From Minisyncoccota bacterium (lineage in GTDB: Bacteria; Patescibacteriota; Minisyncoccia; Phycocordibacterales; SBAW01): a DNA stretch of 64,000 nucleotides. The position numbers were made by a program, and so were the translations under genes. Each line of letters begins with the position of its first letter. Positions within the stretch are counted from its first letter, which is position 1. A model generated the notes under the pieces. That model saw nothing but the letters and a program-made list of their open reading frames with translations. It ran no database searches and had not been told where the DNA came from. The DNA is taken from NCBI GenBank assembly GCA_035546575.1, contig DASZWN010000001.1:119254-183253 (forward strand), written 5' to 3'. Shown piece by piece: positions 20,089 to 46,204 of this stretch.

Positions 20089-20499
20089 ATGGCACGCATC
20101 TCACAACTCGTCCGTAAAGGGCGTACACAGATGAAGAGCAAGACAAAGTCGCCCGCACTCGCGCGCGGCTTTAACGTGCTTAAAAACCGCCCGGTTTACT
20201 ATCCATCGCCTTTTAAGCGTGGCGTATGCACCAAGGTTACGACCACTACTCCTCGCAAGCCTAACTCAGCTATCCGCAAGATCGCCCGCGTTCGCCTCAC
20301 CAACGGTATGGAGATCACCGCCTACATTCCGGGCGAGGGTCACAACCTCCAGGAGCACTCGGTGGTTATCGTGCGCGCCGGCCGCGTGAAGGACATCAAC
20401 GTTCGTTACACGGTTGTGCGCGGCAAGCTCGACGCTGCTGGTGTAGAAAAGCGCAATGTGTCCCGCTCACGCTACGGTGTAAAGCGTCCGAAGAAATAA
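20089..20499 (+). CDS. rpsL: 30S ribosomal protein S12
   Basis: QLVRKGR...[55 protein letters not shown]. Confidence 0.95.
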
Positions 20500-20535
20500 A
20501 CTTTTTAACTGAAATAAAATAAATTTTATTTATAT

Positions 20536-21006
20536 ATGCGACGCCCAGTAAAAAACAGAAATATCGTCGGCCCTGATATGAAGTATCAGTCTTTGCGCGT
20601 GGAGAAGTTTATCAACTCGGTCATGCGCGACGGCAAAAAGTCGACTGCCCGCAAGGTGGTCTACGACGCACTCGATATCATAAAAGAAAAGACAAAGGAC
20701 GAGCAGCCGGTCGAGATTTTTGAGACTGCAATCCGCAATGTTGGCCCTGCGATGGAAATCCGCTCCCGCCGCGTGGGTGGCGCCAACTATCAGGTGCCGC
20801 GCGAGGTTCGCCCAGAGCGCAAGCAGGCGCTCGCCTTCCGCTGGATACTCCTTGCTGCCCGCACAAAAAAGGGCAAACCAATGGCAGAGAAACTTGCCGA
20901 GGAAATCATCTTAGCTTCCAACAACGAGGGCTCAGCTATCAAGAAGAAGGACGACACGCTGCGCATGGCAGAATCGAACAAGGCGTTTGCTCACTTTGCT
21001 TGGTAA
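20536..21006 (+). CDS. rpsG: 30S ribosomal protein S7
   Basis: S7 family sequence throughout. Confidence 0.95.
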
Positions 21007-21029
21007 TTCAGATACATCATGTTTCAAAA

Positions 21030-21057
21030 ACAGCGCCATCGGGCGCTGTTTTTGTAT
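21030..21057 (+). terminator. Intrinsic terminator after rpsG (aacagcgcc-atcg-ggcgctgtt + TTTTT)
   Basis: 9-bp stem, tetraloop, T-run. The following TTGACA-17-TAGTCT promoter-like sequence lies upstream of glmM. Confidence 0.65.
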
Positions 21058-21127
21058 ACGTTGACAAGCACTCTCGCGGCAACTAGTCTTGCCGCAGACT
21101 TGTATTCAGATAAAGGGAGTACGTTCA

Positions 21128-22510
21128 ATGCAGAAACAGAAACCGAAGAAAAACGTCTTCCGTCGGCAGTTCGGCCGCTTTGGTACCGATGGTATCCGCG
21201 GAGTCGCTAATACCGAGGTTACTGCTGAACTTGCAATGCAGGTTGGCAAGGCAGCCGGCGCAGTGTTCATGAAGAATAATGGCGCCCATCGGCACCGTGT
21301 CATTATCGGCAAGGACACGCGCGAGTCGGGCTACATGATCGAGAACGCGATCACGTCCGGCTTTCTGGCCGTGGGAGTCGACGTTCTTCTGACCGGCCCG
21401 CTGCCGACCCCCGCTATTGCAATGCTGACAGTCTCCATGGGTTGTGATATCGGCGTCATGATATCGGCGTCGCATAATCCATATGCTGACAACGGCATCA
21501 AGATATTCGGCTCGGACGGCCACAAGCTGCCCGATTCGGTCGAGGCGGAGATCGAGCAGTTGGTAAACTCTGATCTCTCTGAGTACGCAGCTCAGGCCGG
21601 GAAACTTGGCCGAGCGGAACGTATTCATGAGGTCCAGGGTCGCTACGTCGAGTTTGCGAAGAGGACCCTTCCTCGCAACACCAACTTCGAGAACCTCAAG
21701 GTTGTCATCGACTGCGCCAATGGTGCGGCCCACAAGGTTGCTCCGTGGGTACTGCGCGAGTTGCGTGCTGACGCGATCCCGATCGGGATCGAACCTAACG
21801 GCGTCAATATCAACCAAAAGGTCGGCTCTACGTACCCGTCTACAGTTGCGGCCCGTGTGCTGACCGAGGCGGCTGATGTCGGTATCGCGCTCGATGGCGA
21901 TGCCGACCGTGTCATCATCGTCGACGAGAAAGGGCAAGTCGTCGATGGCGACCAGATCATTGCGGCTATCGCAACCGCGATGCACGAAGGCAAACGTCTG
22001 CGCGGCGGAGTAGCGGTGACCGTGATGTCCAACCTCGGGCTTGAGCACTATCTCCGCGATCGGGATATCAAGGTCACGTACACCAAGGTTGGCGATCGAC
22101 ACGTGAACGAGGCTATGCAGTCGCTGGGGTATAACCTCGGCGGCGAGCAGTCCGGGCATATCATCTGCTCGGATTACTCCACCACCGGAGATGGTCTCAT
22201 TGCTGGCCTTCAGGCGCTCTCGATCCTCAAGAAGTCCGGGCGTCCGGCGAGCGAGGTGTTTCATTGCTTCGATCCGATTCCGCAGGACTTGCGTAACGTT
22301 CTCTACCGAGAGGGCACCAAGCCTTTGGAGCATCTCGCCGTCAAGCGGGTGATTGCCAAGAGCGAGAGGCTTCTTTTGGGGAGGGGTCGCCTCGTAGTTC
22401 GAGAGTCGGGCACTGAATCTGTAATTCGCATCATGGCGCAGGGCGAAAATCGTGCGGAAATCGAGGAAGTCGTACGTAGCATTGCCCACGCTATCGAAAT
22501 GACTTCCTAA
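21128..22510 (+). CDS. glmM: Phosphoglucosamine mutase
   Basis: FGTDGIRG and SASHNPYADNGIK (phospho-Ser loop). RBS GGGAG before the ATG at 21128. The fully overlapping antisense ORF 21125..22489 is rejected. Confidence 0.9.
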   Translation: MQKQKPKKNVFRRQFGRFGTDGIRGVANTEVTAELAMQVGKAAGAVFMKNNGAHRHRVIIGKDTRESGYMIENAITSGFLAVGVDVLLTGPLPTPAIAMLTVSMGCDIGVMISASHNPYADNGIKIFGSDGHKLPDSVEAEIEQLVNSDLSEYAAQAGKLGRAERIHEVQGRYVEFAKRTLPRNTNFENLKVVIDCANGAAHKVAPWVLRELRADAIPIGIEPNGVNINQKVGSTYPSTVAARVLTEAADVGIALDGDADRVIIVDEKGQVVDGDQIIAAIATAMHEGKRLRGGVAVTVMSNLGLEHYLRDRDIKVTYTKVGDRHVNEAMQSLGYNLGGEQSGHIICSDYSTTGDGLIAGLQALSILKKSGRPASEVFHCFDPIPQDLRNVLYREGTKPLEHLAVKRVIAKSERLLLGRGRLVVRESGTESVIRIMAQGENRAEIEEVVRSIAHAIEMTS

Positions 22511-22592
22511 ACAAGCATCGGGGCCGCGGGATTCATACTCCTGCGGCCTCTTTTATTTGCTTTTTGGGTTTCAAATATGCTACTAAAAACCA

Positions 22593-22632
22593 CTGTTCCT
22601 TAAATCTAACGACCGCGTATAATAAGGAACAT
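22593..22632 (+). repeat. 40-bp direct repeat copy 1 (ctgttccttaaatctaacgaccgcgtataataaggaacat). Contains a 9-bp inverted repeat TGTTCCTTA/TAAGGAACA and a TATAAT box, and ends at the ATG of the paaX-like gene
   Basis: Near-identical copy at 23226-23265 (one A/G difference). Confidence 0.75.
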
Positions 22633-23221
22633 GGATATTGAGAAAAGGGTTAAAACTCGAGCACGGCGGCAAAGAATACAGCATATCGTCCTTGGCTCTG
22701 TCTATGCGGCAACTGCTATTGGTATGGCAATGGTCGCACCAAACTCTGTGCAACTATTGCGGCATGTTCAAAAACATTTTGGCCCAAAAGAAAAACTCGG
22801 CCGGCGTATATCTCAAGCTATTACACGCCTACATAGCAAAGGCCTTGTTGTCCGTGTAAAAACTGAAAAAGGTTTCTCGCTCAAACTTACAGAGAAGGGG
22901 AATCGGCTCGCGGAGTCACTGGAGGCAAGAGAGTCTACTCATGCACATACGCCAAAGCGGTGGGACGGAAAGTGGCGGATTGTGATATTTGATGTGTGGG
23001 AGCGCAGGCGGGGAGTGCGCGACCAGTTGCGCCATATGCTCCAAAAAGCAGGTTTCGTAAAAATCCAAAACAGTGTATGGGTGTACCCGTATGACTGCGA
23101 GGAATTGTTTACCTTTCTACGTATCGACCTACATCTGGGGAAGGGGATTCTCTACATCGTTGCAGAAGAAATCGAGCATGACGAAAAGTTGCGCCAGCAC
23201 TTTCACCTCCCACGTCCATAA
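22631..23221 (+). CDS. PaaX-family transcriptional regulator (wHTH plus PaaX_C-like WDGKW domain), short form
   Basis: PKRWDGKWRIVIFDVWERRRGVRDQL matches the PaaX WDGKW signature. The N-terminal region is wHTH-like. Confidence 0.65.
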   Translation: MDIEKRVKTRARRQRIQHIVLGSVYAATAIGMAMVAPNSVQLLRHVQKHFGPKEKLGRRISQAITRLHSKGLVVRVKTEKGFSLKLTEKGNRLAESLEARESTHAHTPKRWDGKWRIVIFDVWERRRGVRDQLRHMLQKAGFVKIQNSVWVYPYDCEELFTFLRIDLHLGKGILYIVAEEIEHDEKLRQHFHLPRP

Positions 23222-23225
23222 GCCT

Positions 23226-23265
23226 CTGTTCCTTAAATCTAGCGACCGCGTATAATAAGGAACAT
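23226..23265 (+). repeat. 40-bp direct repeat copy 2 (downstream of the paaX-like gene, upstream of 23354)
   Basis: Matches 22593-22632. Confidence 0.75.
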
Positions 23266-23353
23266 AGAGAATAAGATTGTACTAGGAACTGACCTGTGCA
23301 CAGCAGCAAAAGCCAACACAGCCTTCGCCCGCCTTGCATGATAAAATAGAATC

Positions 23354-23656
23354 GTGAAAAAGTGGCTATATATCGGTGGTGTTCTCGCCGTTGTTGAGTA
23401 TTTTTTGTGGATTTTCTATGTTTGTGCTTCAGACACAAGTGGCGGATGCGGTGTCGGGTTATTAATTATCCACCCATGGCTTGGTCTTGCTTATATAATC
23501 CAAATTCCCGTTGATGGATCAATTGGCTATATATTAGAGCCTTATTTTTCAGATATTCTTTTCGTAGCTATTCAATTTATAGTAGGAATGTTTTTTGGAT
23601 GGTTAGCATACCGAATATTTAATTGGTTCAAGAAGTTACCGCCCAGCAGTTTCTAG
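23354..23656 (+). CDS. Hypothetical small membrane protein (AT-rich gene)
   Basis: Three predicted TM helices. Lower GC than the flanking genes. Confidence 0.45.
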   Translation: MKKWLYIGGVLAVVEYFLWIFYVCASDTSGGCGVGLLIIHPWLGLAYIIQIPVDGSIGYILEPYFSDILFVAIQFIVGMFFGWLAYRIFNWFKKLPPSSF

Positions 23657-23717: not shown

Positions 23718-25868
23718 ATGGCAGGACGCGACTATCCACTGGAGAAAGTTAGAAACTTCGGCATCATCGCACACATCGATGCGGGCAAGACCACCACGTC
23801 TGAGCGCGTGTTGTATTACACCGGCTCGCAGCACAAGATAGGCGAGGTACACGAGGGCGAGACAACCACCGACTGGATGGAGCAGGAGCGCGAGCGCGGC
23901 ATCACTATTACCGCCGCCGCTATTACCTGCTTCTGGTCCAAGACAAACGAGCCGGACAAGAAGGACGCTTCTAAAAAATTCCGTTTCAATATTATCGACA
24001 CTCCCGGACACATCGACTTTACCGTAGAGGTTAAGCGCTCGATGCGCGTGCTCGACGGCGCAGTGGTGGTGTTCGACGGCGTAGCCGGCGTAGAACCGCA
24101 GTCGGAGACAAACTGGCGCTATGCCGACGAGGCTAATGTGCCGCGCGTCTGTTTTATCAACAAGATGGACCGCATGGGCGCCTCGTTTGAAAAATCGTAC
24201 GCATCGATCCTCGACCGCCTCACCAAGCACGCGGTGCGCATGCAGATCCCGATAGGCGCAGAAGGGGATTTTGACGGCGTTGTCGACCTGCTGAGTATGA
24301 AGGCCTACAAATTTGAGGGCAACATGGGCGAAGATGTTGTTGAGACTGAGGTTCCAGAGAACCTTAAAGAGGAGGCTCTCAAATATCGCGGCATGCTGAT
24401 TGAGAAGATCGTCGAGCAGGACGATGCGCTCATGACCGCCTACCTCGACGGCAAAGAGCCAAGCATAGAGGAGCTTAAAGCCACTCTTCGCAAGGCAGTT
24501 ATCGCAAACAAGATCTTTCCGGTCTACACGGGCTCTGCTCTTAAAAACAAAGGCGTGCAGCTCGTGCTTGATGCGGTGGTGGACTATCTCCCGTCTCCAG
24601 TCGACATGCCGCCGGTTACCGGCACCGATCCTAAGACAGGTAATCCTATCGAGCGCCACGCATCAGACGATGAGCCGTTTACCGCACTCGCATTCAAACT
24701 CCAGGCCGACCCATTTGTGGGCCAGCTCACCTTCTTCCGCGTATACTCGGGCACCATCGAGGCAGGTTCATATATCTACAATTCAACTACCGGTACTAAG
24801 GAGCGCCTTGGCCGTATCGTGCGCCTCCAAGCAAACGAGCGCGAAGAGGTAAAGAAGGTCTACGCCGGCGAGATCGCTGCAGCCGTAGGTCTTAAGGACA
24901 CCAAGACATCGCACACGCTGTGCGACGAGGCACACCCGATCCAGCTCGAGCAGATCAAATTCCCTGAGCCGGTTATTTCTCTGCGCATTGAGCCAAAGAC
25001 AAAGGCCGACCAAGAGAAGATGGGCATGGCAATGAAGAAGCTCGCTGACGAGGACCCAACCTTTAAGGTGTCGACCGACTCCGAGACGATGGAGACCCTC
25101 ATTTCAGGCATGGGTGAGCTCCACCTCGAAATCCTCGTCGACCGCATGAAGCGCGAGTTCGGCGTAGAGGCAAACGTGGGCAAGCCGCAGGTGGCATACC
25201 GCGAGACTATCCAGAAGGAGGCCGAGGCAGAAGGCAAATACATCAAGCAAACCGGCGGTAAGGGCCAGTACGGTCATGTGCGCTTGCGTCTCAAGCCGCT
25301 CGAGCCGCTTGCTGAGGGTGCCAAAATTTCTAAAACAACTACGCGCGAAGATCACTTTGAGTTTATCAACTCGATTAAGGGAGGCGTTGTCCCGAACGAG
25401 TTTATCGGTCCTGTTGAAGACGGCGTGCGCGAGGCTATGGAGCGCGGTATTGTTGCCGGCTTTAAGATGGTGGACATCTCATGCGAGCTCTACGACGGCT
25501 CCTATCACGATGTCGACTCGTCAGAAATCGCCTTTAAGATTGCTGCGTCGATGGGCTTCCAGGAGGCTGCAAAGGCTGCAAAGCCTGTTCTGCTTGAGCC
25601 TATTATGAAAGTGGAGGTTGTAGTGCCAGAGAAGTTCATGGGTGATATTACCGGCTCGCTTAACTCCAAGCGCGGGCAGATCGAGGGTATGGAGGAGCGC
25701 GGTATGGCTCGCGCTGTTAAGGCAAAGGTGCCGCTGAGCGAGATGTTTGGCTACACCACCGCGCTTCGCTCGATGACCGAAGGCCGCGCCTCGTTTACCA
25801 TGGAGTTTGACCACTACGAGGTGGTGCCGCCAAACGTAGCTGCGACCATTGTTGCAGCTCGCAAATAG
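23718..25868 (+). CDS. fusA: Elongation factor G
   Basis: [12 protein letters not shown] and DTPGHIDF G-domain motifs; full-length EF-G. Confidence 0.95.
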
Positions 25869-25930
25869 AGCCTACTACTTATCCCCACCCGCCTCTTGCG
25901 GGGAATAGGGAAGATACTAGAATGAAGACA

Positions 25931-25975
25931 ACAGGGTGCGAGCGAAAGCTCGTGCCCTCTCTTCGTTTTAATTAT
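25931..25975 (+). terminator. Intrinsic terminator after fusA (10-bp stem with GAAA tetraloop + T-run)
   Basis: gggtgcgagc-gaaa-gctcgtgccc followed by tctcttcgtttt. Confidence 0.6.
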
Positions 25976-25982: not shown

Positions 25983-26771
25983 TTGAAAATCATGACAAAA
26001 GCGCAGACGTTATCAGCAACTTTTATAAAAACACTCTACGTGTTTACGGTGATTTTTGCCGTTTTGTTGGCATATGCTTTCTGGGCGCCAAAGGCTCACG
26101 CCGCAGCACTCACCGAGACGCAAATCCAAGCCGTGAGCAGTTTGCTTGCCTCGTTTGGTGCGGAGCAATCAGTGCTGAGTAACGTGCAGTTGGCCCTTAA
26201 GGGTGCATCGCGGGAGGATATTTTAAAAGCGATGGGAGCGAACATGGGCTCAACCTCTCCAAGGGGGGATATGCGCCCAACCCTTTCTAATGTCATGGGC
26301 ACCTCAAGCCCTATTATGTGCCCGATGCTCGTCCGCACGGTGGGTAAGGGCGCAAACGGGGATGATGTCTCTAATCTCCAAGCCTTTTTGCAGAGAAGCG
26401 GCGATTTGAAAGAAGCTTCAACAACTGGTTACTTTGGCCAGAGCACTGAAGATGCGCTCAAGGCATGGCAGGCTCGCCAAGGTATAGCAACGAGCGGCGA
26501 TCGCTCCACGACAGGTTTTGGCGCTGCTGGTCCTAAGACTCGCGATGCGCTGGTAATAAACTGTATGAAGATGCAGGTAGAACAGCAGCAAAAAATGCGC
26601 ATGATGGAGCCGAAGCGCGTCTCGAGCACCACTCCGCTGGTGCCGCCTCCTCCAAAACAAAAAGATTCCGACGTTGTATCGCTCATTAACTCAATCAAGC
26701 AAGTATCCGGGCTTATCTCATTGGGGGCAGCCTCGGTATTTGAGGGCTACACCTCGTTGTTTGAGCAATAA
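25983..26771 (+). CDS. Secreted protein with a peptidoglycan-binding (PG_binding_1-like) domain
   Basis: Signal peptide. GANGDDVSNLQAFLQRSGDL...GYFGQSTEDALKAWQARQGIATSGD...GPKTRDAL fits the PGBD repeat pattern. Confidence 0.65.
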   Translation: MKIMTKAQTLSATFIKTLYVFTVIFAVLLAYAFWAPKAHAAALTETQIQAVSSLLASFGAEQSVLSNVQLALKGASREDILKAMGANMGSTSPRGDMRPTLSNVMGTSSPIMCPMLVRTVGKGANGDDVSNLQAFLQRSGDLKEASTTGYFGQSTEDALKAWQARQGIATSGDRSTTGFGAAGPKTRDALVINCMKMQVEQQQKMRMMEPKRVSSTTPLVPPPPKQKDSDVVSLINSIKQVSGLISLGAASVFEGYTSLFEQ

Positions 26772-26847
26772 CAACTTGCGTATCCTCTTAGGAGTGATTG
26801 AATAGGGGAAGAAGATAACTTGTGTGTAACATGCAGGAGAATGATCA

Positions 26848-27285
26848 ATGTCTATCTCCGAGCTTGAGTTCGAGTTGAAGAGTCGTCGAGCTCCTTACGA
26901 AAAGAACGAAGACGGAAGTCTTGTGCTAAGGGCGGAGAGCAAATCGTGTATATATCCGGTTCTCTTTACCCCTAGCGGTGATCATATCCAGGCCCTCGTG
27001 TGGTTTCCCGCCACCCAGCGTCTTGTCAGTGATGCCAAGGGTCTCTGCAGGAGTATCCTGGCACACTGGGTTTCCGGCATGGACATCGGCTTCGAGTTCA
27101 GTAATGGTAAGTTTTACGCCGGCGCTTTTCTCACCCCACAAAATGTATGGGCCCAGATGGATAAATTCGTCATGGCCTGCGACATACTGACGATCCTTTT
27201 CAAACGTGCGGGAGAGCTGGGTACATGGGATGGGCATCTTATAGACCTCGCATTTACTCCGGTCGAAAGATTGCCTCCCCAATAA
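26848..27285 (+). CDS. Hypothetical cytoplasmic protein (possibly YbjN-like)
   Basis: About 145 aa with no TM segment; weak resemblance only. Confidence 0.45.
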   Translation: MSISELEFELKSRRAPYEKNEDGSLVLRAESKSCIYPVLFTPSGDHIQALVWFPATQRLVSDAKGLCRSILAHWVSGMDIGFEFSNGKFYAGAFLTPQNVWAQMDKFVMACDILTILFKRAGELGTWDGHLIDLAFTPVERLPPQ

Positions 27286-27290
27286 ACTTT

Positions 27291-27316
27291 AACCGCCGGC
27301 CCACAAAGCCGGCGGT
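27291..27316 (+). terminator. Intrinsic terminator (aaccgccggc-cacaaa-gccggcggtt)
   Basis: 10-bp perfect stem. Confidence 0.6.
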
Positions 27317-27342
27317 TGACTCTTTTTCGTGCTCTGCTACTA
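27315..27342 (+). promoter_or_regulatory. Promoter TTGACT-16-TACTAT upstream of tuf
   Basis: -35 TTGACTCTTTT and -10 TACTAT. The same TTGACTCTTTT -35 element also occurs at 33570 and 34674. Confidence 0.55.
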
Positions 27343-27412
27343 TGGCCCTAACGCAATAGGGCGGGCTTTCCTTTGCTTGTAATTAAAAGTTATTAATTAG
27401 GGTTTCTTATAT

Positions 27413-38293: not shown

Positions 38294-38321
38294 GTGGTTC
38301 AACTAGGCGGAGGAATGAAGC

Positions 38322-38582: not shown

Positions 38583-38611
38583 AAAAGGCGCTCCTTACGG
38601 GGCGCCTTTTT
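38583..38611. terminator. Bidirectional terminator (AAAAGGCGCtcc-ttac-ggGGCGCCTTTTT), family member 2
   Basis: On the 3' side of the minus gene 38610..39077. Near-identical core to 32583 and 39133, including a shared upstream AGTAAAAGGCGC. Confidence 0.7.
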
Positions 38612-39077
38612 AGAAAAATTCTCCTGCCTTGTACTCCTTCATCAGCTTCTGTGCTGTTTCTCTTTCTTCTTCGTCGTTGATTCGCTCTGCCCACTGTTCA
38701 GCCTCAGGAAGGTTGTCGTATACAAGAAGGGTCAGGAGTGTCGTAATCTGGTTCGGGTGGTCGTCGCCTTGGTATATCAAGGCCGCAACTGCGTTGAGAC
38801 GAGCTGCCTCCTTGTCTTTGTGCATCCAGATTGCACTGCTGATTGCATGATGATGCCAGAACCACAGTATCTCGAGACACCATTCGCGCTCCTCTTTTGG
38901 AAGTGCGCGCAGATTTGTACGACTGAGGATTTTTCGGACCTTATTGGTGAGTAGGAAAGGGTTTTCGTAATCCCACTCTCCAGCCTTAAATAGCCGCTGG
39001 TCTTCATCGATGTACGCACGATACAGGTCGCGGATAGTAGTGACTCCCGCCACCGCGTACGCCTCAAGAAGTGACAT
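38610..39077 (-). CDS. Hypothetical protein, 155 aa, inserted inside the spc operon
   Basis: ORF-track ORF. Sits between a promoter-like AT-rich region and a terminator. No recognisable family. Confidence 0.5.
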   Translation of the reverse strand: MSLLEAYAVAGVTTIRDLYRAYIDEDQRLFKAGEWDYENPFLLTNKVRKILSRTNLRALPKEEREWCLEILWFWHHHAISSAIWMHKDKEAARLNAVAALIYQGDDHPNQITTLLTLLVYDNLPEAEQWAERINDEEERETAQKLMKEYKAGEFF

Positions 39078-39132
39078 GTTGTCCTCCGTATTTCAAACCA
39101 ACCATCACTGTGTCATATCTGCGGAAAAAGTA

Positions 39133-39160
39133 AAAGGCGCCGGTGGAAGGGCGCCTTTCT
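39133..39160. terminator. Bidirectional terminator (AAAAGGCGCC-ggtggaag-GGCGCCTTTCT), family member 3
   Basis: On the 3' side of the minus gene 39175..39480. Confidence 0.65.
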
Positions 39161-39174
39161 GCATTCTTGGGCAG

Positions 39175-39480
39175 TCAGTCCAACTGCTCGACGAGCTTCT
39201 CAGCTGTCGCTTTATCAACACCGTGGATGACGAAGCACCCAACCAATGTCGAGCGTCCCGACTGAGCCTGCTTCTCCTGGATAAGTCGGAGGGCCTCCTC
39301 CGGGAGTCCCTTTGGGAGGGACCGTCCGGCGAAACGCACCTTCATGTCCTTCGCTCCTGCGAAGGCGAGGGCAAGGCTCCTTTCGGCAGCTGCCTTGACC
39401 TCGGGTGAAGCCGGATCTGCCCGGCCAGCCGCTAGGCGGACTGCAACTTGCCCAAGCGCCTCTGTACGAGGGTCGCTCAT
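39175..39480 (-). CDS. Hypothetical protein, 101 aa
   Basis: ORF-track ORF with its own terminator. No recognisable family. Confidence 0.45.
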   Translation of the reverse strand: MSDPRTEALGQVAVRLAAGRADPASPEVKAAAERSLALAFAGAKDMKVRFAGRSLPKGLPEEALRLIQEKQAQSGRSTLVGCFVIHGVDKATAEKLVEQLD

Positions 39481-39612
39481 CTCGATTTCTCCTTGTTTCG
39501 AAGAACGCTTAACCAGACTATATTATACCATAGGATATAGATAAAAGTCAAGTGATAGAAATGGCCCTCAAAATAGGGTTGGTACATAAGGGTGGGGCAG
39601 GAGGGCGGGTAT

Positions 39613-39641
39613 TTGCATTTCTGCCTGGGCTACGGTATAGT
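39613..39641 (+). promoter_or_regulatory. Promoter TTGCAT-17-TATAGT that restarts transcription of rpsZ-rpsH-rplF-... after the insertion
   Basis: Good -35 and -10 with a 17-nt spacer. Followed by a gcccatatgggc palindrome plus T6 (possible attenuator) and a leader of about 120 nt. Confidence 0.55.
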
Positions 39642-39775
39642 CTCTCCACGCCCATATGGGCTCCTTTTTTCTGTCAGGTGCCGCTTAGTCTTAATTGGCG
39701 AGGCAAACCCACAGAATCACCCTTCGACAGGTTTGAGCATGGGGCTTAGCCGAGGGATCGAAGGAACAAAAGTAT

Positions 39776-39961
39776 ATGGCAAAAAAGTCTACAGTAGCGC
39801 GCTCAAACCGTGCCCCGAAATTCAAGTCGAGGGTTGTTAATCGTTGCTTCCGCTGCGGCCGCAAGCGCTCATTTATGCGCGACTTCGGCATGTGCCGCGC
39901 CTGCTTCCGCGAGGCAGCGCTTGAGGGCCTTATACCTGGCGTTCGCAAATCATCTTGGTAA
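39776..39961 (+). CDS. rpsZ: 30S ribosomal protein S14, type Z (zinc-binding, 61 aa)
   Basis: [23 protein letters not shown] with CxxC...CxxC. Confidence 0.9.
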
Positions 39962-39970
39962 TCATCTTTT

Positions 39971-40357
39971 ATGGTAACTGACCCTATCGCAGATTTTTTG
40001 ATCCGACTTCGCAACGCGCTTATGGCGAATAAGGAGTCTGTCGTCGTACCGTCCTCTAAGATGACCCTCGCTCTTTCCGAGGTGCTCTCTCGCGAGGGAT
40101 ACATCGGCGCTGTCGACAAAAAGGTCAAAAACAACTCACTCACGATTGCGCTCACCTACAAAAACGGCCGTCCATCTATATTGGGCAGCAAGCGCATCAG
40201 CAAGCCGTCGCGCCGCATGTACATCGGAGTACACGATGTAAAGCCGGTTAAACGCGGCCACGGCCTCCTTGTACTCTCAACCCCGGCAGGCATTCTCACA
40301 GGCAAAGAAGCGAAGGAGAAGCATGTCGGCGGGGAAGCGCTGTTCGAAATCTGGTAG
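39971..40357 (+). CDS. rpsH: 30S ribosomal protein S8
   Basis: MVTDPIADFLIRLRNA... Confidence 0.95.
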   Translation: MVTDPIADFLIRLRNALMANKESVVVPSSKMTLALSEVLSREGYIGAVDKKVKNNSLTIALTYKNGRPSILGSKRISKPSRRMYIGVHDVKPVKRGHGLLVLSTPAGILTGKEAKEKHVGGEALFEIW

Positions 40358-40389
40358 TTCGATATGACTCACCACAAGTAATCATTCGT

Positions 40390-40923
40390 ATGTCACGCCT
40401 TGCTAAAAGACCAATAACGCTCCCCGCTAAAACCGAGATAACATTCTCCGGCGATTTGCTGACGGTTAAGGGGCCTAAAGGCACGCTCACGCGCCAAGGT
40501 CATCGCCTTATCACTATCGAGAAAGGGGAGGAAGGCGTGCAGGTGTCGATGAAGAAGGACACGCTTGAGGCCCGCGCGCTTGTCGGCAGTTTTGCTTCGC
40601 ATGTGCGCAACATGATCGAGGGCGTCAACGCCGGCTTCAGCAAAAAGCTGATCATCGAGGGCGTCGGCTACAAGTGGGACGTTGCGGGTAAGACACTCAA
40701 TTTGGCACTCGGCTTTTCGCACCCTGTCAAAATGTCGATCCCCGAAGGCCTCACCGTAACGATCGAGAAGGGAGTACTCTCAGTTGCGGGATTTGATAAA
40801 GAACTCGTGGGCCAGTTTGCCGCAAACGTCCGCGCGCTCAAGGTGCCGGAGCCGTACAAGGGCAAGGGTATCCGCTACAGCGACGAAGTGATCCGCCGCA
40901 AGCAGGGCAAGAAGGCGGCGTAA
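40390..40923 (+). CDS. rplF: 50S ribosomal protein L6
   Basis: L6 family sequence. Confidence 0.95.
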   Translation: MSRLAKRPITLPAKTEITFSGDLLTVKGPKGTLTRQGHRLITIEKGEEGVQVSMKKDTLEARALVGSFASHVRNMIEGVNAGFSKKLIIEGVGYKWDVAGKTLNLALGFSHPVKMSIPEGLTVTIEKGVLSVAGFDKELVGQFAANVRALKVPEPYKGKGIRYSDEVIRRKQGKKAA

Positions 40924-40956
40924 TCCCGAGCTTGCGAGGAACAATACAAAGAACGT

Positions 40957-41301
40957 ATGAAAAACAACATTAAAACTCAAGGCCGTGAACGCCGCCACAA
41001 CCGCATTCGCTCTCGCGTCGTGGGTTCAGCTGCGCGCCCACGCCTCACCGTATACAAATCAAACCGCTACCTCCATGCCCAGATTATCGACGATGCTGAG
41101 GGTAAAACCCTTGTCTCTGGTACGACACAGGGAGTGAAGGCCACGAAGATGGACGCTGCAAAGAAACTCGGCGCTGATATGGCAAAGCGCGCACAGGAGG
41201 CGGGGATCAAGGCGGTTGTATTTGATCGCGGCGGCTTCCGCTACACTGGTCGCGTAGCCATGCTCGCAACGGCAGCGCGCGAAGCAGGACTCAACTTTTA
41301 A
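40957..41301 (+). CDS. rplR: 50S ribosomal protein L18
   Basis: L18 family sequence. Confidence 0.9.
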   Translation: MKNNIKTQGRERRHNRIRSRVVGSAARPRLTVYKSNRYLHAQIIDDAEGKTLVSGTTQGVKATKMDAAKKLGADMAKRAQEAGIKAVVFDRGGFRYTGRVAMLATAAREAGLNF

Positions 41302-41307
41302 TTACGT

Positions 41308-41916
41308 ATGGACGATATGACTGAACAAAAGAATGATATGGAAGTGGTAGCACAAGAGGCTGCGGTTGAGACTGCTACCGAAAACGCTGCACCGGCAGCA
41401 GACACCCGCGCTCCTCGCGAGCGTCGTGGTCGTACGGGCGGTCGTGGCGGACGCCCAGGCAGCAATCGTGCGCGTCCGGAGCGCAAGAGCGAGTACGACC
41501 AGCGCATCATCAATATCCGCCGAGTGTCTCGTGTGACTACTGGCGGTCGCCGCTTCACCTTTAGCGTTTCGGTTATTATCGGCAATAAAAAAGGCAAGGT
41601 GGGTGTGGGTGTCGGCAAAGCGGGGGACACTACGCTCGCTATCGACAAGGCGGTGCGCGATGCAAAAAAGCACATGATCACCGTGGCGCTGCGCAAAGAC
41701 TCTTCTATTGCGCACGACGTGCTCGCAAAGTTTAACGCGTCTCGCGTTTCGCTCACTCCGGCGCACGGCCGCGGTCTTGTTGCAGGCTCATCGGTACGCC
41801 CGGTACTCGAACTCGCAGGTATCACCAACATCGTTGCCAAGGTGCATTCGGGCAGCAAGAACGGCCTCAACAATGCGCGCGCAGCAATCGAGGCACTCAA
41901 ATCTCTTAAGGCATAA
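41308..41916 (+). CDS. rpsE: 30S ribosomal protein S5 (with Arg/Gly-rich N-terminal extension)
   Basis: S5 core sequence IINIRRVSRVTTGGRRFTFS... Confidence 0.9.
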   Translation: MDDMTEQKNDMEVVAQEAAVETATENAAPAADTRAPRERRGRTGGRGGRPGSNRARPERKSEYDQRIINIRRVSRVTTGGRRFTFSVSVIIGNKKGKVGVGVGKAGDTTLAIDKAVRDAKKHMITVALRKDSSIAHDVLAKFNASRVSLTPAHGRGLVAGSSVRPVLELAGITNIVAKVHSGSKNGLNNARAAIEALKSLKA

Positions 41917-41926
41917 AACACCCACC

Positions 41927-42346
41927 ATGCAACTCAACGAACTTAAACGGGCAACCCCGAACAAAAAAGAAAAGCGCGTAGGCCGCGGAGGCGGTCGCGG
42001 CAAAACCTCTGGTCGCGGTACCAAGGGCCAGAAGGCGCGCGCGGGCCACAGCATCATGCCGGCAATCCGCGAGCAGCTGAAGAAACTTCCGAAGCGCCGC
42101 GGCTACAGCTTTAAGAGCATCCAGGCAAAGTCGTCGGTAGTTAACCTCTCCTTGCTCGAAAAGGTGTTTCAGGCAGGTGATACCATTAACCCAAAGATCC
42201 TCATGGATCGCGGCGTCGTGCGTGACACGGGCGCGGTCAAGATCTTGGGCGATGGCGAACTCACTAAAAAATTTACGATCTCCGGGTGCGCGATCTCTGC
42301 AAGCGCTCGGGCAAAAGTAGAGAAGGCAGGCGGCTCGGTTTCCTAA
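41927..42346 (+). CDS. rplO: 50S ribosomal protein L15
   Basis: MQLNELKRATPNKKEKRVGRGGGRGKTSGRG...; start set at the internal ATG at 41927. It directly follows rpsE; no L30 gene lies between them. Confidence 0.9.
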   Translation: MQLNELKRATPNKKEKRVGRGGGRGKTSGRGTKGQKARAGHSIMPAIREQLKKLPKRRGYSFKSIQAKSSVVNLSLLEKVFQAGDTINPKILMDRGVVRDTGAVKILGDGELTKKFTISGCAISASARAKVEKAGGSVS

Positions 42347-42358
42347 CACCACTCGGAT

Positions 42359-43633
42359 ATGAATACCTTTATACAACGACTCACGCTTCTCATCGCAGAC
42401 AAGTCGCTGCGCAATCGGCTATTGTTCGTAGTCGGCGCGCTCGCTGTATTCCGCGTACTCGCGGCTATTCCGATTCCGGGCGTTAACGCGGCCCAGCTGC
42501 AAAACTTTTTTGCTAACAATCAGTTTTTCGGTCTCCTCAACCTCTTCTCGGGCGGCGGCCTTTCGAGCCTCTCCATTGTGATGCTCGGCGTAGCGCCGTA
42601 CATCACGGCCTCTATCATCATGCAGCTCCTTACGATGATGATTCCGGCGCTCAAACAGCTCTACCAGGAAGAGGGGGAAGCGGGTCGCCAGCGCTTTAGC
42701 CAATACACCCGCATGCTCGCGCTTCCGATAGCGGTGCTCCAGGGTGTTAGCTTTTTGCTTATCCTCGAGCGCCAGGGCGTACTCACGGTACTTTCGCCAT
42801 TTAACTTTGCGGCAAACTTGCTTGTGATAACGGCAGGCTCACTCCTCCTTATGTGGATCGGCGAGCTTATCTCGGAGTTCGGTCTCGGCAACGGCGTATC
42901 GCTCATCATTTTTGCCGGCATTGTGTCCCGCCTTCCAGAAACTATCAGCCAGAGCATCTTCGCATTCGACTCAACGCAGGTTCCGGTATATCTCGGCTTC
43001 CTTGCGGGGGCTATCGCAGTTATCGCGGCAGTCGTCGTTATCAGCGAGGCTGAGCGTCCGGTGCCGGTAACCTACGCCAAGCGCGTTCGCGGTATGAAGT
43101 TTATCTCCGGCGGCGGTTCAACCTACCTTCCGCTTCGCCTTAACCAGGCAGGCGTTATCCCGATTATCTTTGCGCTCTCACTCCTCCTTATCCCGCAGAT
43201 GTTCGCGAGTTTCTTCTCAACCTCAAGCAACGCAATCCTTTCCGGCATCTCGGCTTCAATACTCAGCACCTTCCAAAACCTGACCATCTACGGCAGCCTC
43301 TACTTTGTCTTCGTGTTCCTCTTTACCTACTTCTACACTGCAGTTACGTTCGACCCGAACCAGATCTCGGAAAATCTGCAGAAGAACGGCGCGTTTATCC
43401 CGGGTGTGCGCCCAGGCATTTCCACCTCTGAGCATCTCGCACGCATCATTACGCGCATCACGTTTGTGGGCGCGCTCTTCCTCGCGATCATCGCGGTGCT
43501 CCCGATTATCATGCAGTCGATAACGGGTATCACCACGCTCGCGCTGGGCGGTACTGCGCTCCTCATCGTGGTTCAGGTGATCCTCGACCTCGCGCGTCGC
43601 ATTGACGCGCAGATCTCAATCCGCGAGTATTAA
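42359..43633 (+). CDS. secY: Protein translocase subunit SecY
   Basis: 10-TM SecY family with conserved segments. Confidence 0.95.
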   Translation: MNTFIQRLTLLIADKSLRNRLLFVVGALAVFRVLAAIPIPGVNAAQLQNFFANNQFFGLLNLFSGGGLSSLSIVMLGVAPYITASIIMQLLTMMIPALKQLYQEEGEAGRQRFSQYTRMLALPIAVLQGVSFLLILERQGVLTVLSPFNFAANLLVITAGSLLLMWIGELISEFGLGNGVSLIIFAGIVSRLPETISQSIFAFDSTQVPVYLGFLAGAIAVIAAVVVISEAERPVPVTYAKRVRGMKFISGGGSTYLPLRLNQAGVIPIIFALSLLLIPQMFASFFSTSSNAILSGISASILSTFQNLTIYGSLYFVFVFLFTYFYTAVTFDPNQISENLQKNGAFIPGVRPGISTSEHLARIITRITFVGALFLAIIAVLPIIMQSITGITTLALGGTALLIVVQVILDLARRIDAQISIREY

Positions 43634-43636
43634 TAG

Positions 43637-44218
43637 ATGGAGAAGCAGGGCAAACTCGTTCTCGTTATTGGCCCAACTGGCAGCGGAAAGAGTGCGCTCA
43701 TGGCACATGCGCGGCAAGCCGTGCCTGGCCTCGTGTTTCCGATATCGTGCACTACTCGCGCGATGCGACCCGGCGAAGTCGAAGGAGAAAATTATTTTTT
43801 TGTAACTCCAGAGGAGTTTGAACGCCGCGTTAAAGCGGGCGATTTTCTAGAGTGGAAGCATACCGACGAAAAGCGCTACGGCACCCTTAAATCACAGATT
43901 CTTACGCCGCTCGCAGAAGGTAAGACCGTCATTCGAGAGGTTGAGATACGCGGCGCGCGCGATATTTTGGGCGGCCTCGTCCCGCGCGATCTCGTACACA
44001 CTATATATATCGACGGCGGTTCGTGGGAGCAGCTTGAGGCGCGCATTTTAAGACGTGCTTCCATGGGAGAGGTCGAGCTTGCATCACGCCGCACCCGCTA
44101 TGCGGAGGAGTCGGTTTTTAAGAACGAAGCGGATGTGGTGATAGAAAATACGGAGGGCAAGCTGGAAGAGGCAAAACAAGAGTTCGAGAAAGCTATCCGG
44201 GCTATCATGGAAGCGTAA
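43637..44218 (+). CDS. gmk: Guanylate kinase
   Basis: GPTGSGKSAL P-loop; RPGEVEGENYFFV. Confidence 0.85.
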   Translation: MEKQGKLVLVIGPTGSGKSALMAHARQAVPGLVFPISCTTRAMRPGEVEGENYFFVTPEEFERRVKAGDFLEWKHTDEKRYGTLKSQILTPLAEGKTVIREVEIRGARDILGGLVPRDLVHTIYIDGGSWEQLEARILRRASMGEVELASRRTRYAEESVFKNEADVVIENTEGKLEEAKQEFEKAIRAIMEA

Positions 44219-44238
44219 TATAGTTTAAAATACCTAGC

Positions 44239-44832
44239 GTGAATCAACTTACCGTAATCTTTTTAGGGCCGCAAGGGAGTGGAAAGGGCACACACGCAAA
44301 TATGTTTCAGGAGGACCTCAAGCGGCTCGACGCCGGTCGTCCCATCGTTCACTTTGAGATGGGCAAAAATCTGCGCGACTTGGCTTCCGGCAACTCGTAC
44401 ACGGGGAGACTGCTCCAAGAAGTAATCAGCCGCGGAGAGCTGGTACCGTTTAACATCAGCAGCAGCGTGCTCTCGCAATATCTCATCAGCGCCATGCAAG
44501 GCAACGAACATCTTATCATCGACGGCTTTCCCCGCAGCGAAACACAGATGGACGTTGTAGACACCACCATGCAATTTTATAAGCGCGAGTCTCCAACCGT
44601 CGTGCACATCAATATTTCCGATGAAGAAGGGCTTAAGCGCCTCCTCAAGCGCGGCCGCTCCGACGATACCGAGGACAATATTCGCAGACGTCTTGCCTGG
44701 ACTCGTGCTGAGTGGGATAAAATCCGCAAACGACTAGACGCAAATCCAATGTACAAAGTACTCGAGATAGATGGCGACCACAGTATCGAGGACGTACATG
44801 CCGATATTCTCGCCAAATTAGGTTTAGCATGA
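44239..44832 (+). CDS. adk: Adenylate kinase
   Basis: GPQGSGKGT P-loop; IDGFPR. Confidence 0.9.
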   Translation: MNQLTVIFLGPQGSGKGTHANMFQEDLKRLDAGRPIVHFEMGKNLRDLASGNSYTGRLLQEVISRGELVPFNISSSVLSQYLISAMQGNEHLIIDGFPRSETQMDVVDTTMQFYKRESPTVVHINISDEEGLKRLLKRGRSDDTEDNIRRRLAWTRAEWDKIRKRLDANPMYKVLEIDGDHSIEDVHADILAKLGLA

Positions 44833-45590
44833 TAGCAAAAACACAAAGCGAAATAAAAAATCTGCGCGAAGCAGGGAAGCGCATGGCTGAGGTGGTGCGC
44901 GAGGTGCTTGCTGCGGTCAAGCCGGGAGTTTCTTCTATGGAGCTTGAGCGTATCGCACGCGAGGCAACCAAACGGGTTGATGCTGTGCCATCGTACTTAG
45001 GCTATGGCGTAAAAGGGGAAAACATATATCCGGCAGCACTCTGTGTTTCTATCAACGACGATATTGCGCATAGTCCGCCCACTCCAGATAAAATTTTAAA
45101 AAAGGGAGATGTGGTCTCGATCGACTTCGGTCTCAACTATAAGGGCGCGTTTATGGATACTGCCTACACGATTGCCGTGGGCGAGGTAGACAGCAAAGCA
45201 AAAAATCTTATTGCTGGCACTGAAGCCGCGCTTGCGGTTGGTATAGATGCTGCGCGTGTCGGAGGCAAAACTGGCGACATTGGTGCGGCAGTTGAGGCAG
45301 TAGCAAAGCAATACAAACTCGACGTCGTGCGCGACTTACGCGGTCACGGCGTTGGCAAGGCAGTGCACGAGGCACCAAATATTCCAAACTTTGGCACTAA
45401 AGGCAAAGGAGTAGAGATGGTAGAGGGCTTGGTGATTGCGATCGAACCGATTTTCGCAGAAGGCTCCGGTGAGATGGTAGACAAGGGCGACGGATTTACC
45501 TACACGACCAAAGACGGCTCGCGCGCCGCGCATTTTGAGCACACGGTGCTTATCACCAAAGACGGTCCGGAGATTTTAACGCTCTTGTAA
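44829..45590 (+). CDS. map: Methionine aminopeptidase, type I
   Basis: Pita-bread fold sequence with metal-ligand residues (D..D..H..E..E). Confidence 0.9.
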   Translation: MIAKTQSEIKNLREAGKRMAEVVREVLAAVKPGVSSMELERIAREATKRVDAVPSYLGYGVKGENIYPAALCVSINDDIAHSPPTPDKILKKGDVVSIDFGLNYKGAFMDTAYTIAVGEVDSKAKNLIAGTEAALAVGIDAARVGGKTGDIGAAVEAVAKQYKLDVVRDLRGHGVGKAVHEAPNIPNFGTKGKGVEMVEGLVIAIEPIFAEGSGEMVDKGDGFTYTTKDGSRAAHFEHTVLITKDGPEILTLL

Positions 45591-45619
45591 AAACTCCCGC
45601 ACTATTGTAGAGTGCTGCC

Positions 45620-46204
45620 ATGCAGCATCCTAAAGAGGAGAAGACATTCGTGCTTATAAAACCCGATGGGGTCCGTAAGGGCCTGGTGGGTGAGATTATC
45701 AAGCGCTTTGAGCAGCGCGACCTTAAGGTCGTGGCGCTCGAAATGTTTGAGCCATCGCGCGCCGAGATGGATCAACATTATCCAAAAGACGAAAAGTGGC
45801 TGACCCGCATCGGCGACAAGACCGCCGCAACCTACGAGAAGTACGGTTACGATATCAAAAAAGATTTTGGCACGACCAACCGTCTTTCGATCGGCAAAGA
45901 AGTACGCAAATGGCTCATCACGTTCATGACCTCGGCGCCGATGGTTAAGATGGTGGTACAGGGCGTGCATTCGGTAGATATGGTCCGCAAAATCGTGGGG
46001 CCTACGATGCCATACCTAGCTGAGATGGGCACCATCCGTGGCGATTACTCCGCAGATTCGGCCATAAGCGCAAATATGGAGAAACGCGCGGTGTTTAACC
46101 TGGTCCATGCAAGCGAGACTCCCGAGGAGGCGCGTCACGAGATCAATCATTGGTTTGGTAAAAAGAACATCTTTCACTACAAGCGTTTTGGTATTGATGA
46201 ATAA
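45620..46204 (+). CDS. ndk: Nucleoside diphosphate kinase (with insertion)
   Basis: EKTFVLIKPDGVRKGLVGEIIKRFE...GPTMPY...GTIRGDY. Confidence 0.85.
   Translation: MQHPKEEKTFVLIKPDGVRKGLVGEIIKRFEQRDLKVVALEMFEPSRAEMDQHYPKDEKWLTRIGDKTAATYEKYGYDIKKDFGTTNRLSIGKEVRKWLITFMTSAPMVKMVVQGVHSVDMVRKIVGPTMPYLAEMGTIRGDYSADSAISANMEKRAVFNLVHASETPEEARHEINHWFGKKNIFHYKRFGIDE

Follow-up and report, generated by a model that had tools for sequence, protein, structure and literature searches.

Fixed borders interrupt the conserved str-S10-spc ribosomal supercluster across Paceibacteria

The str-S10-spc supercluster of translation genes is the textbook case of a gene order frozen for billions of years, and it is a basis of marker-gene binning and of the phylogeny of uncultured bacteria. 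In Archaea, rpsJ accompanies the gene for an elongation factor (tuf/EF-1alpha), and a separate unit begins with L3-L4-L23-L2. Here, we describe the form that this supercluster takes in a metagenome-assembled genome of the uncultured Candidatus Adlerbacteria (class Paceibacteria; Patescibacteria, the Candidate Phyla Radiation, CPR), where it occupies positions 20089-46204 of a 64,000-nucleotide (nt) stretch of contig DASZWN010000001.1 (assembly GCA_035546575.1). This whole stretch is referred to below as the window. The cluster keeps the canonical gene order and is opened by gaps at a small set of borders that recur throughout the class.

The closest described phenomenon is inter-operon invasion, in which a few ordinary genes enter between colinear translation operons (Brandis 2021; PMC8046335, PMC6735719). 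Of 115 rearrangements, 65% left the operons intact and long-distance horizontal transfer was not needed; the invaded borders were rpoBC/str, str/S10 and S10/spc, and spc and alpha were never separated in 204 genomes (PMC8046335, PMC6735719). Among known autoregulatory leader RNAs of ribosomal protein operons, the S10 leader of E. coli binds L4 and the spc operator binds S8; the L20 leader of Bacillus is another example (Fu et al. 2013, PMC3616713). Our literature search found no description of ribosomal-operon interruptions or leaders in CPR/Patescibacteria.

Supercluster borders in the window and across the class

Genes of the window were identified by Pfam search. The canonical series lies on the + strand, each gene with a Pfam match, in the order S12-S7-EF-G-EF-Tu-S10-L3-L4-L23-L2-S19-L22-S3-L16-L29-S17-L14-L24-L5-S14-S8-L6-L18-S5-L15-SecY-Adk-Map; L30 is the sole canonical gene absent from the window cluster by this search. 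Contiguity is broken elsewhere than at the classical operon borders (tuf/rpsJ, rpsQ/rplN, and after secY/rpmJ). The S7/fusA interval measures 2711 nt, fusA/tuf 1544 nt, S10/L3 803 nt, L2/S19 2249 nt and L5/S14 1534 nt, with S17/L14 at 5 nt. An original prediction, made from the letters of the window without database searches, had claimed interruptions of str-S10-spc at five or more points, and Pfam bears this out. The occupants that it named are in place: glmM, a PaaX-like regulator and a membrane protein between rpsG and fusA; a peptidoglycan-binding (PG-binding) protein and a small hypothetical protein between fusA and tuf; and small open reading frames (ORFs) with purC between rplB and rpsS. 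The roughly 800 bp of structured non-coding DNA expected between rpsJ and rplC is a spacer of 803 nt (29125-29927) that folds, taken whole, with a z-score of -7.6. The predicted 1.5-kb cassette region between rplE and rpsZ exists as an interval of 1534 nt (38242-39775) but contains small genes (p66, r155 and r101) rather than cassettes, and no integrase. Similarly, gmk does lie between secY and adk, but its short spacers (3 nt from secY, 20 nt to adk) and the lack of a terminator mark it as part of the secY-adk operon and not as an interruption.

To place the window among its relatives, we surveyed L2-anchored loci from 80 species-level Paceibacteria genomes and 80 metagenome contigs, taking flanks of at most 10 kb per side, and located the cluster genes in them by tblastn (individual loci and contigs carry L numbers below). 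Six junctions are expanded: S7/fusA (median 758 nt, maximum 1814 nt; at least 500 nt in 8/13 loci), fusA/tuf (2474 and 6485 nt; 24/27), S10/L3 (354 and 4156 nt; 26/63), L2/S19 (842 and 9695 nt; 38/65), L5/S14 (590 and 4081 nt; 28/46) and secY/adk (105 and 1187 nt; 7/18). At each of the 20 other junctions the median is between 1 and 19 nt, and none reaches 500 nt in the 80 genomes; among these genomes the classical S10/spc border, S17/L14, is closed, with a median of 6 nt. The six-junction pattern recurs in the 80 metagenome contigs. L2/S19 and L5/S14 are open throughout the sample, and S10/L3 mainly in its Adlerbacteria/Kaiserbacteria part (median 743 versus 52 nt elsewhere). In relatives, the six junctions differ greatly in content, and their lengths range between about 10 nt and 9.7 kb. 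The interruptions are a class-wide property at fixed borders and are not peculiar to the Adlerbacteria genome of the window, and the expanded borders are ancient and common to the whole class.

As in the inter-operon invasion described by Brandis, a few unrelated genes stand in Paceibacteria between colinear, intact operons. The borders, in contrast, are internal to E. coli and Bacillus operons: S7/fusA and fusA/tuf lie within str, S10/L3 and L2/S19 within S10, and L5/S14 within spc. Conversely, the classical S17/L14 border is closed in Paceibacteria, and the spc-alpha link is lost in the window. The frequency is also far higher, with most Paceibacteria genomes expanded at most borders. The tight tuf-rpsJ pair and the open S10/L3 border recall the archaeal arrangement, from which Paceibacteria differ in that L2-S19 and L5-S14, contiguous in Archaea, are open borders.

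The source being a metagenome-assembled genome, chimeric assembly or mis-binned joins at the junctions could in principle have produced the interruptions. However, separate Logan assemblies of two sequencing runs yielded contigs that are 99.9-100% identical to the window and cross three of the junctions: rpsG-glmM-PaaX-like-fusA at junction 1 (L164, 20334-23894), rplD-rplB-gap-purC-rpsS at junction 4 (L176, 30642-35053) and rplE-gap-rpsZ leader at junction 5 (L175, 38059-39687). The borders are also the same in dozens of independent genomes obtained by other studies. An artefactual origin, which the original prediction had named among the outcomes that would refute it, is therefore hardly credible.

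In a one-genome-per-species collection, the nearest L2 proteins come from Adlerbacteria and 'Paceibacterota' metagenome-assembled genomes and reach at most 94% identity; two gap proteins have exact matches in NCBI, labelled 'MAG TPA: Candidatus Paceibacterota bacterium'. Exact-protein look-ups, intended for strain-level comparison, gave no match for L2 and S14 and just short same-strain contigs for L14, the PaaX-like protein, r155 and purC. The closest different genomes are about 80% identical to the window in DNA. Against two of them, L083 and L084 (94% L2 amino-acid identity), the window is colinear outside four stretches (29124-29477, 29687-29910, 32920-33531 and 38339-39629), all of which fall inside gaps; 32920-33531 and 38339-39629 have no counterpart in L083. 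The question posed by the original prediction, whether close relatives show an ancient fixed arrangement or a mobile one, receives a divided answer: the borders are ancient and several residents are conserved, but the content of the gaps turns over.

Terminator-like hairpins number 46, compared with 23.5 +/- 5.2 expected from shuffled sequence. Strong ones follow glmM, fusA, rpsJ, rplB, purC, rplE, the gap genes hyp145 and tm73, and the small gap genes, and they are clustered in the gaps. To this extent the claim that each insertion brings its own terminator holds, but none accompanies gmk and none separates rpsG from glmM. The two restart promoters that had been predicted, TTGACT-17-TAGTAT before rpsS and TTGCAT-17-TATAGT before rpsZ, were found at 34674-34702 and 39612-39641 (both +). 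Further promoter-like sites precede tuf (TTGACT-16-TACTAT, 27316-27343, +) and rplC (TTGCAT-17-TATAGT, 29822-29850, +). We searched the 80 genomes for a loose -35/-10 motif within 200 nt upstream of gene starts and found it upstream of rpsS in 56/65 genomes, rpsZ in 37/46, rplC in 38/71, tuf in 30/46, fusA in 20/39 and rpsL in 5/11. The same motif precedes rpsJ in 1/60 genomes and each of 11 internal genes in 0-3 genomes. Because promoter-like motifs stand before rplC, rpsS and rpsZ and are nearly absent before internal genes, each of the three appears to begin a unit, and since the motif is common before tuf and not before rpsJ, tuf-rpsJ behaves as one unit.

We propose, with a probability of roughly 70%, that the supercluster retains its ancestral order but has been re-partitioned into independent transcription units with insertion-tolerant borders. 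The units would be rpsL-rpsG (with glmM), fusA, tuf-rpsJ, rplC-rplD-rplW-rplB, rpsS through rplE, and rpsZ through secY-gmk-adk-map (with ndk). We infer from the hairpins and motifs that each unit ends in an intrinsic terminator and that most restart from their own sigma-70-type promoter, three of them opening with a structured 5' leader RNA of their own. DNA inserted at the five or six borders would be tolerated because nothing need be transcribed or translationally coupled across them, and the separate promoter of each block, together with the leader RNA of three, would render the spacers permissive to insertion. Genes would then come and go by ordinary rearrangement and horizontal transfer, some becoming fixed residents, while the tightly coupled junctions inside the units would stay closed. 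If so, a whole CPR class keeps the gene order yet has moved its operon borders, and the new borders behave as insertion hot spots. The pattern would show where the cluster breaks, namely not within co-translated blocks, and would extend the operon-concatenation idea beyond Proteobacteria and Firmicutes.

Several observations weigh against this proposal. In locus L121, a 1925-nt insertion occupies S17/L14, the sole kilobase case at a normally closed junction in the sample. Upstream of rpsL and fusA in the window, the TTGCAx and TAtAGT boxes are just 12-13 nt apart, and the promoters and terminators in general are consensus matches only. At about 80% DNA identity, replacement of spacers carrying ORFs without known relatives (ORFans) is indistinguishable from rapid divergence. 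The survey comprises L2 homologues from one class, in metagenome-assembled genomes. Finally, gap genes conserved in place, described below, fit selected linkage as well as they fit tolerated insertion.

Gene modules and the content of the gaps

The six modules, all on the + strand, are laid out as follows. Module 1 (20089-22550) comprises rpsL (20089-20499), rpsG (20536-21006), glmM (21128-22510) and a strong closing terminator hairpin (22520-22550); rpsG and glmM are not separated by a terminator. Module 2 (23718-25958) is fusA (23718-25868) with its terminator (25933-25958). Module 3 (27316-29195) runs from the tuf promoter-like site through tuf (27413-28606) and rpsJ (28747-29124) to a terminator hairpin at 29166-29195. 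Module 4 (29928-32608) consists of rplC-rplD-rplW-rplB (29928-32523) and a bidirectional terminator (32584-32608); the rplC start is the ATG at 29928, matching relatives, and not the TTG at 29895. Module 5 (34773-38287) extends over rpsS-rplV-rpsC-rplP-rpmC-rpsQ-rplN-rplX-rplE (34773-38241) to a terminator at 38262-38287. Module 6 and its tail (39776-46204) contain rpsZ-rpsH-rplF-rplR-rpsE-rplO-secY (39776-43633), gmk (43637-44218), adk-map (44239-45590) and ndk (45620-46204).

Between modules 1 and 2 lie the PaaX-like gene (22631-23221, +), annotated by its PaaX_M/Cas2-like domain, and TM100, a 100-amino-acid membrane ORF directly upstream of fusA (23354-23656, +; GC content 0.38) that has no family match and no homologue in related loci. 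Gap 2 (25983-27319, +) is occupied by a PG_binding_1 protein gene (25983-26771), the 145-amino-acid hypothetical ORF hyp145 (26848-27285) and a bidirectional terminator (27289-27319). Gap 4 (32609-34655) carries genes on both strands, with a 1.1-kb stretch followed by purC: tm73, a 73-amino-acid membrane ORF (33017-33238, +), a bidirectional terminator (33244-33266), the 79-amino-acid ORF r79 (33285-33524, -), purC itself (33642-34616, +) and a terminator after it (34632-34655). Gap 5 (38288-39551), again with both strands used, contains the 66-amino-acid ORF p66 (38322-38522, +), a terminator (38530-38557), r155 (38610-39077, -) and r101 (39175-39480, -), hairpins at 38585-38608 and 39134-39157, and a divergent, near-consensus promoter for r155/r101 (TTGACT-18-TATAAT, 39551-39522, -). 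The small genes of gaps 4 and 5 have good ribosome-binding sites, and three of them (r79, r155 and r101) are on the minus strand. Four hairpins in the window share the arms AAGGCGC...GCGCCTT (13804-13827, 32586-32606, 38585-38608 and 39134-39157; 0 expected by chance), and three of the four are in cluster gaps. They have GC stems followed by T-runs, stand at gene ends, and resemble a preferred type of terminator more than a mobile repeat.

Several genes that the original prediction had treated as arrivals turn out to be conserved residents, namely glmM, the PaaX-like gene, the PG-binding gene, purC, gmk and ndk. One explanation is that such non-ribosomal genes are kept by selection for co-expression or co-regulation with the translation apparatus, in an ancient, fixed and functional arrangement. 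The tight fit of gmk in the secY-adk operon of the window and 9 related loci argues for it, as do ndk after map in relatives too, purC at L2/S19 in at least six other loci (L001, L083, L084, L095, L135 and L136; 78-94% L2 identity), the PG-binding family in fusA/tuf (20 loci; 20/22 cluster members), and PaaX-like genes on the same strand upstream of rplC or fusA in 6/6 look-ups and 13 L2-anchored loci. Other residents conserved in place are glmM, which is found upstream of fusA also in L003 and L021, and diacylglycerol-kinase-like, rplJ-like and other genes at L2/S19. Selection of this kind explains the conserved residents but not the turnover. Clustering of the 466 gap ORFs of at least 90 amino acids from relatives gave 311 clusters, 251 of them singletons without conservation, and gap lengths span three orders of magnitude. 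Moreover, many of the gap genes run opposite to the ribosomal genes, under a promoter and terminators of their own, and hence are not co-transcribed with them. We consider selected linkage less likely than re-partitioning with insertion-tolerant borders.

The turnover involves mostly unremarkable genes. A set of 150 representative gap proteins matched 93 Pfam families, almost all with ordinary cellular functions, among them TruD, CofD, TatC, a ClpB-like ATPase, Mur ligase, M48 peptidase, diacylglycerol kinase, orotidine monophosphate decarboxylase, L7/L12, gmk and purC; a single transposase (IS1595) was present. In L049, L070, L071 and other, more distant loci, rplJ-like (L10) and L7/L12 genes occupy L2/S19, part of another ribosomal operon having moved in. 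HepT/MNT and HicA/HicB toxin-antitoxin pairs occur in L167, L168, L170, L172 and L174, in the fusA/tuf or rpsJ/rplC gaps or upstream of tuf. In the window, r155, r101, p66, tm73 and TM100 gave no Pfam, PHROG or NCBIfam match. Its gap ORFs without a family match have no homologue in related loci beyond weak matches to r79, just after rplB in L112, L123 and L125, and to hyp145, at the same place in L119.

These contents bear on a further possibility, that the gaps are site-specific landing pads whose border sequences are targeted by mobile elements delivering cargo. At least the r155 cargo has a mobile-element history: the family has 14 relatives elsewhere in Patescibacteria, one of which (56% identity) lies in an island (L178 1-10459; ENA ERZ4222710 NODE_106, also GCA_037139975.1) that includes a tyrosine integrase, an excisionase-like HTH_17 protein, a ParE/YafQ-RHH pair, a PG_binding_1 protein and a serine recombinase. 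No relatives of r155 were found in viral contigs, and a phage origin was rejected. Also compatible with landing pads are the toxin-antitoxin modules and the one transposase in the gaps of relatives, an 8-nt direct repeat around the 23S-derived insert described below, 57-nt direct repeats around the PaaX-like gene, and the low GC of TM100 (0.38) and the PaaX-like gene (0.48).

However, the window gaps contain no integrase, transposase, tRNA or attachment site or attachment-like repeat, their repeated hairpins are terminator-like and stand at gene ends, and the cargo of relatives is overwhelmingly housekeeping or ORFan. The inserted genes have, on average, the composition of the genome background (GC at third codon positions 0.571 and codon adaptation 0.476, against 0.584 and 0.520 for the background and 0.637 and 0.699 for the ribosomal genes); taken together, they do not look foreign. 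The PaaX-like unit behaves as a vertically inherited resident with two position-specific subfamilies, and not as a hopping cassette. We rejected an integron cassette array in gap 5 (no integrase family match, terminator-like hairpins) and an integrative island or transposon (no recombinase in the gaps, no tRNA, background-like mean composition), the exceptions to the latter negative being the 8-nt repeat, the 57-nt repeat and low-GC TM100. Site-specific landing pads therefore appear improbable. The repeated landing site of the original prediction survives in the sense that five or six fixed borders gather varied genes repeatedly, but it is neither the whole cluster nor site-specific.

Insertion at the borders is not limited to genes. 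The strong folding of the rpsJ/rplC spacer is due to its being a mosaic. Behind the rpsJ terminator hairpin (29166-29195) comes a structured, lineage-specific insert of about 280 nt (29196-29477, +) with its own terminator (29452-29475) and UUCG/GNRA-type hairpins; it has no Rfam match, is absent from the closest relatives L001 and L084, and may be a small RNA gene. A 210-nt segment common to the closest relative follows (29478-29686), ending in a terminator at 29654-29675. Its portion 29478-29653, which includes a hairpin-plus-U-run element and a CT-rich tract, is 75% identical to L001 and L084 and may encode a small transcript that is conserved. Next, ahead of the rplC promoter and leader that complete the spacer, comes a 131-nt lineage-specific insertion (29687-29817, +) bounded by an 8-nt direct repeat TTTCTTGC at 29679-29686 and 29818-29825. 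It contains 111 nt of 23S rRNA corresponding to helices 67-69 (29694-29804, +), followed by a terminator-like hairpin at 29783-29812. This match (Rfam RF02541, 58.8 bits against a gathering score of 50, E = 7e-15) covers model positions 1856-2001 only and was returned for whole-window searches, not for sub-windows. The fragment is not a gene, though the helix 69 loop CCGUAACUAUAACGG is intact. It occurs in 0/163 related loci, the closest relative included, and alignment to L001 shows it as an insertion. A conserved rRNA mimic regulating rplC-rplB was rejected, given this absence, the position upstream of the rplC promoter and the bounding direct repeat. The fragment looks like a lineage-specific insertion of rDNA-derived filler, and the 131-nt insertion shows that non-genic DNA also lands in cluster borders.

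Candidate leader RNAs and a candidate PaaX-like regulator

Three candidate leaders lie in the 5' untranslated region between the predicted promoter and the first gene of the rplC, rpsS and rpsZ units. The L3-operon leader with its promoter-like site spans 29822-29927 (+), with a core at 29893-29927. In the window, the core consists of stem P1, GGUU(G)UC/GAAACC, ending at the AUG, stem P2, GUCCC/GGGAC, and an internal loop CAC/CAAUA. Across relatives, P1 takes the forms GUUG(A)UC/GACAAC or GGUU(G)UC/GAAACC and in Adlerbacteria ends at position -1 of the AUG, P2 takes the forms GUCCC/GGGAC, GUCGG/CCGAC, GUCCG/CGGAC or GUCCU/AGGAC and encloses a variable hairpin, and within the conserved internal loop an A-U pair switches to G-C. 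The core motif is found within 130 nt of the rplC start in 69/125 sequences (68/124 related loci and the window), and it occurs 171 times in 3.9 Mb counting both strands. In an alignment of 37 sequences (20 distinct), hand-fitted to the structure so that pairing is inflated, 97.5% of cells are paired and 5/12 pairs have double compensatory changes. The covariation score is 0.252; shuffled alignments scored 0.085, with 0/500 as high, and slid registers no more than 0.047. In Kaiserbacteria-like loci, the core is followed by CCAAUGGC...GCCAUUG and a GCGCC...GGCGC-U-run hairpin. The L3 leader is a candidate for start-codon sequestration in Adlerbacteria and for an antiterminator/terminator platform in the Kaiserbacteria-like loci; two expression platforms on one core are typical of genuine cis-regulators.

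The S19-operon leader, with the rpsS promoter, spans 34674-34772 (+) and combines an outer stem with an inner stem that covaries and a loop, CGCUCUCUG, that is conserved. RNAalifold on 15 sequences gave 17 pairs, 11 of them with compensatory changes. This complex form is present in 37/123 loci, and a simple form, a short GC hairpin followed by a U-run, in 35/123 loci of other lineages. The S14-operon leader, with the rpsZ promoter, spans 39612-39775 (+) and is made up of a hairpin GCCCnnnnGGGC with U-run, stems P1 (UUCUG/CAGAA) and P2 (UGCC/GGCA), and UUAGUC-[variable hairpin]-GGCGAGG. An alignment of 18 sequences (A2) has 15 pairs, 6 with compensatory changes, one pair being GC in 11 sequences and CG in 7. 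The hairpin insertion varies in length, and the signature is found in 26/71 loci.

Like known ribosomal leaders, these are structured elements between a promoter and the first ribosomal protein gene, with conserved helices and compensatory changes, and the L3 leader, by its sequence, may sequester the start region or, in other lineages, carry a terminator platform. They differ in preceding rplC, rpsS and rpsZ, which are internal genes in model organisms, and in having no Rfam 15 family: a search of 28600-40000 at E <= 1 matched neither leaders nor spacers and gave four chance-level matches far below gathering scores, the 23S fragment excepted. The idea that the leaders are recognizable copies of protein-binding sites of rRNA found no support: local alignment and motif comparison to E. 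coli 16S and 23S rRNA stayed at chance level. Resemblances noticed by eye between the S14 leader and 16S helix 21, and between GACCAAUAG and 23S position 442, were not significant. Judging from their sequences and positions, the three leaders probably serve as autoregulatory operators for an encoded ribosomal protein and are likely additions to the ribosomal-leader class.

The PaaX-like protein of the S7/fusA gap has 196 amino acids, with a winged helix-turn-helix and a Cas2-like PaaX_M domain (PF20803, 3.3e-20). Its gene forms the core of a unit at 22587-23276 (+) delimited by 57-nt direct repeats at 22587-22643 and 23220-23276. Each repeat carries a perfect palindrome, GTTCCTTA-N20-TAAGGAAC, around a TATAAT box, the palindromes spanning 22595-22630 and 23228-23263; the first copy ends at the ATG of the PaaX-like gene, and the second points into TM100-fusA. 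Of 10 relatives tested, 8 likewise have a pair of palindromes, 36-43 nt long and lineage-specific in sequence, on either side of the homologue, a pattern that would be expected if a regulator co-evolved with its operators. Palindrome-bracketed loci of this type were noted in L005, L017, L020, L093, L100, L112 and L154. The family yielded 834 matches. Homologues picked by sequence alone were inside the cluster in 6/6 cases, on the same strand, at S10/L3 or S7/fusA. Two subfamilies are distinguishable, one of about 204 amino acids between rpsJ and rplC and one of about 197 amino acids (the window type) between rpsG and fusA. The genes of the 13 L2-anchored loci likewise share the strand of the cluster and stand shortly before rplC or fusA.

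The best solved-structure match of the window protein by sequence and fold is PaaX, the phenylacetate-catabolism repressor (PDB 8a39), the fold matches being only indicative, as the structure model has low confidence (mean predicted local distance difference test, pLDDT, 60.7). Unlike PaaX, the window protein has no PaaX C-terminal domain (TIGR02277 41.2 bits against a cut-off of 264.55, residues 60-157 only), there are no paa genes nearby, and the homologues are always beside translation genes. We rejected the GenBank name 'Cas2': the TIGR01573 match (26.3 against 24.5 bits) covers 37 residues only and the neighbours are ribosomal. No CRISPR repeat array was found in 20000-46300. The PaaX-like gene is a conserved resident and probably encodes a regulator tied to the ribosomal modules, rather than being a random insertion, and the PaaX-type unit is the most novel lead of the analysis.

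A broader but tentative interpretation, to which we give less than even odds, is that the module division, at least three new leader RNAs and a CPR-specific PaaX-type transcription factor with palindromic operator-promoters together amount to rebuilt control of the translation genes. If that were true, the gene-collecting gaps would be a by-product of the new architecture. In either case, the locus offers three candidate leader RNAs and a candidate regulator with operators in organisms with almost no known gene regulation. For binning and annotation of Paceibacteria, kilobase gaps, opposite-strand ORFans and a mis-named 'Cas2' are to be expected within the cluster.

Flanking and minor features

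Downstream of map, ndk is followed by a beta-CASP (RNase J-like) RNase gene. As the original prediction had it, ndk takes the place of infA, rpmJ and the alpha operon; no infA, rpmJ or alpha-operon-sized set of ORFs was seen after map in the ORF list, the other downstream ORFs not having been searched against families. Upstream of rpsL (15723-19997), in the usual place of rpoB-rpoC, the window encodes a protein of 1424 amino acids, secreted or located at the surface, in which BNR/sialidase-like 'SxDxGxTW' repeats occur together with a long tract rich in Gly. Low-complexity Ala/Lys-rich extensions are present at the N-terminus of S10 (28747-29124), the C-terminus of L4 (30557-31354), the C-terminus of S19 (34773-35129) and the N-terminus of S5 (41308-41916). 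No tRNA genes were found anywhere in the 64-kb window, and a tmRNA gene lies at 58306-58678 (-; Rfam 81.4 bits), for which ARAGORN gave the tag peptide AKSVSSPYFSVNDLSLATARA. The region 51000-53000 has a GC content of 0.41, against about 0.53. Two very large ORFs on the minus strand overlap it (51561-53807 and 53985-57239) and may be acquired surface-protein genes.

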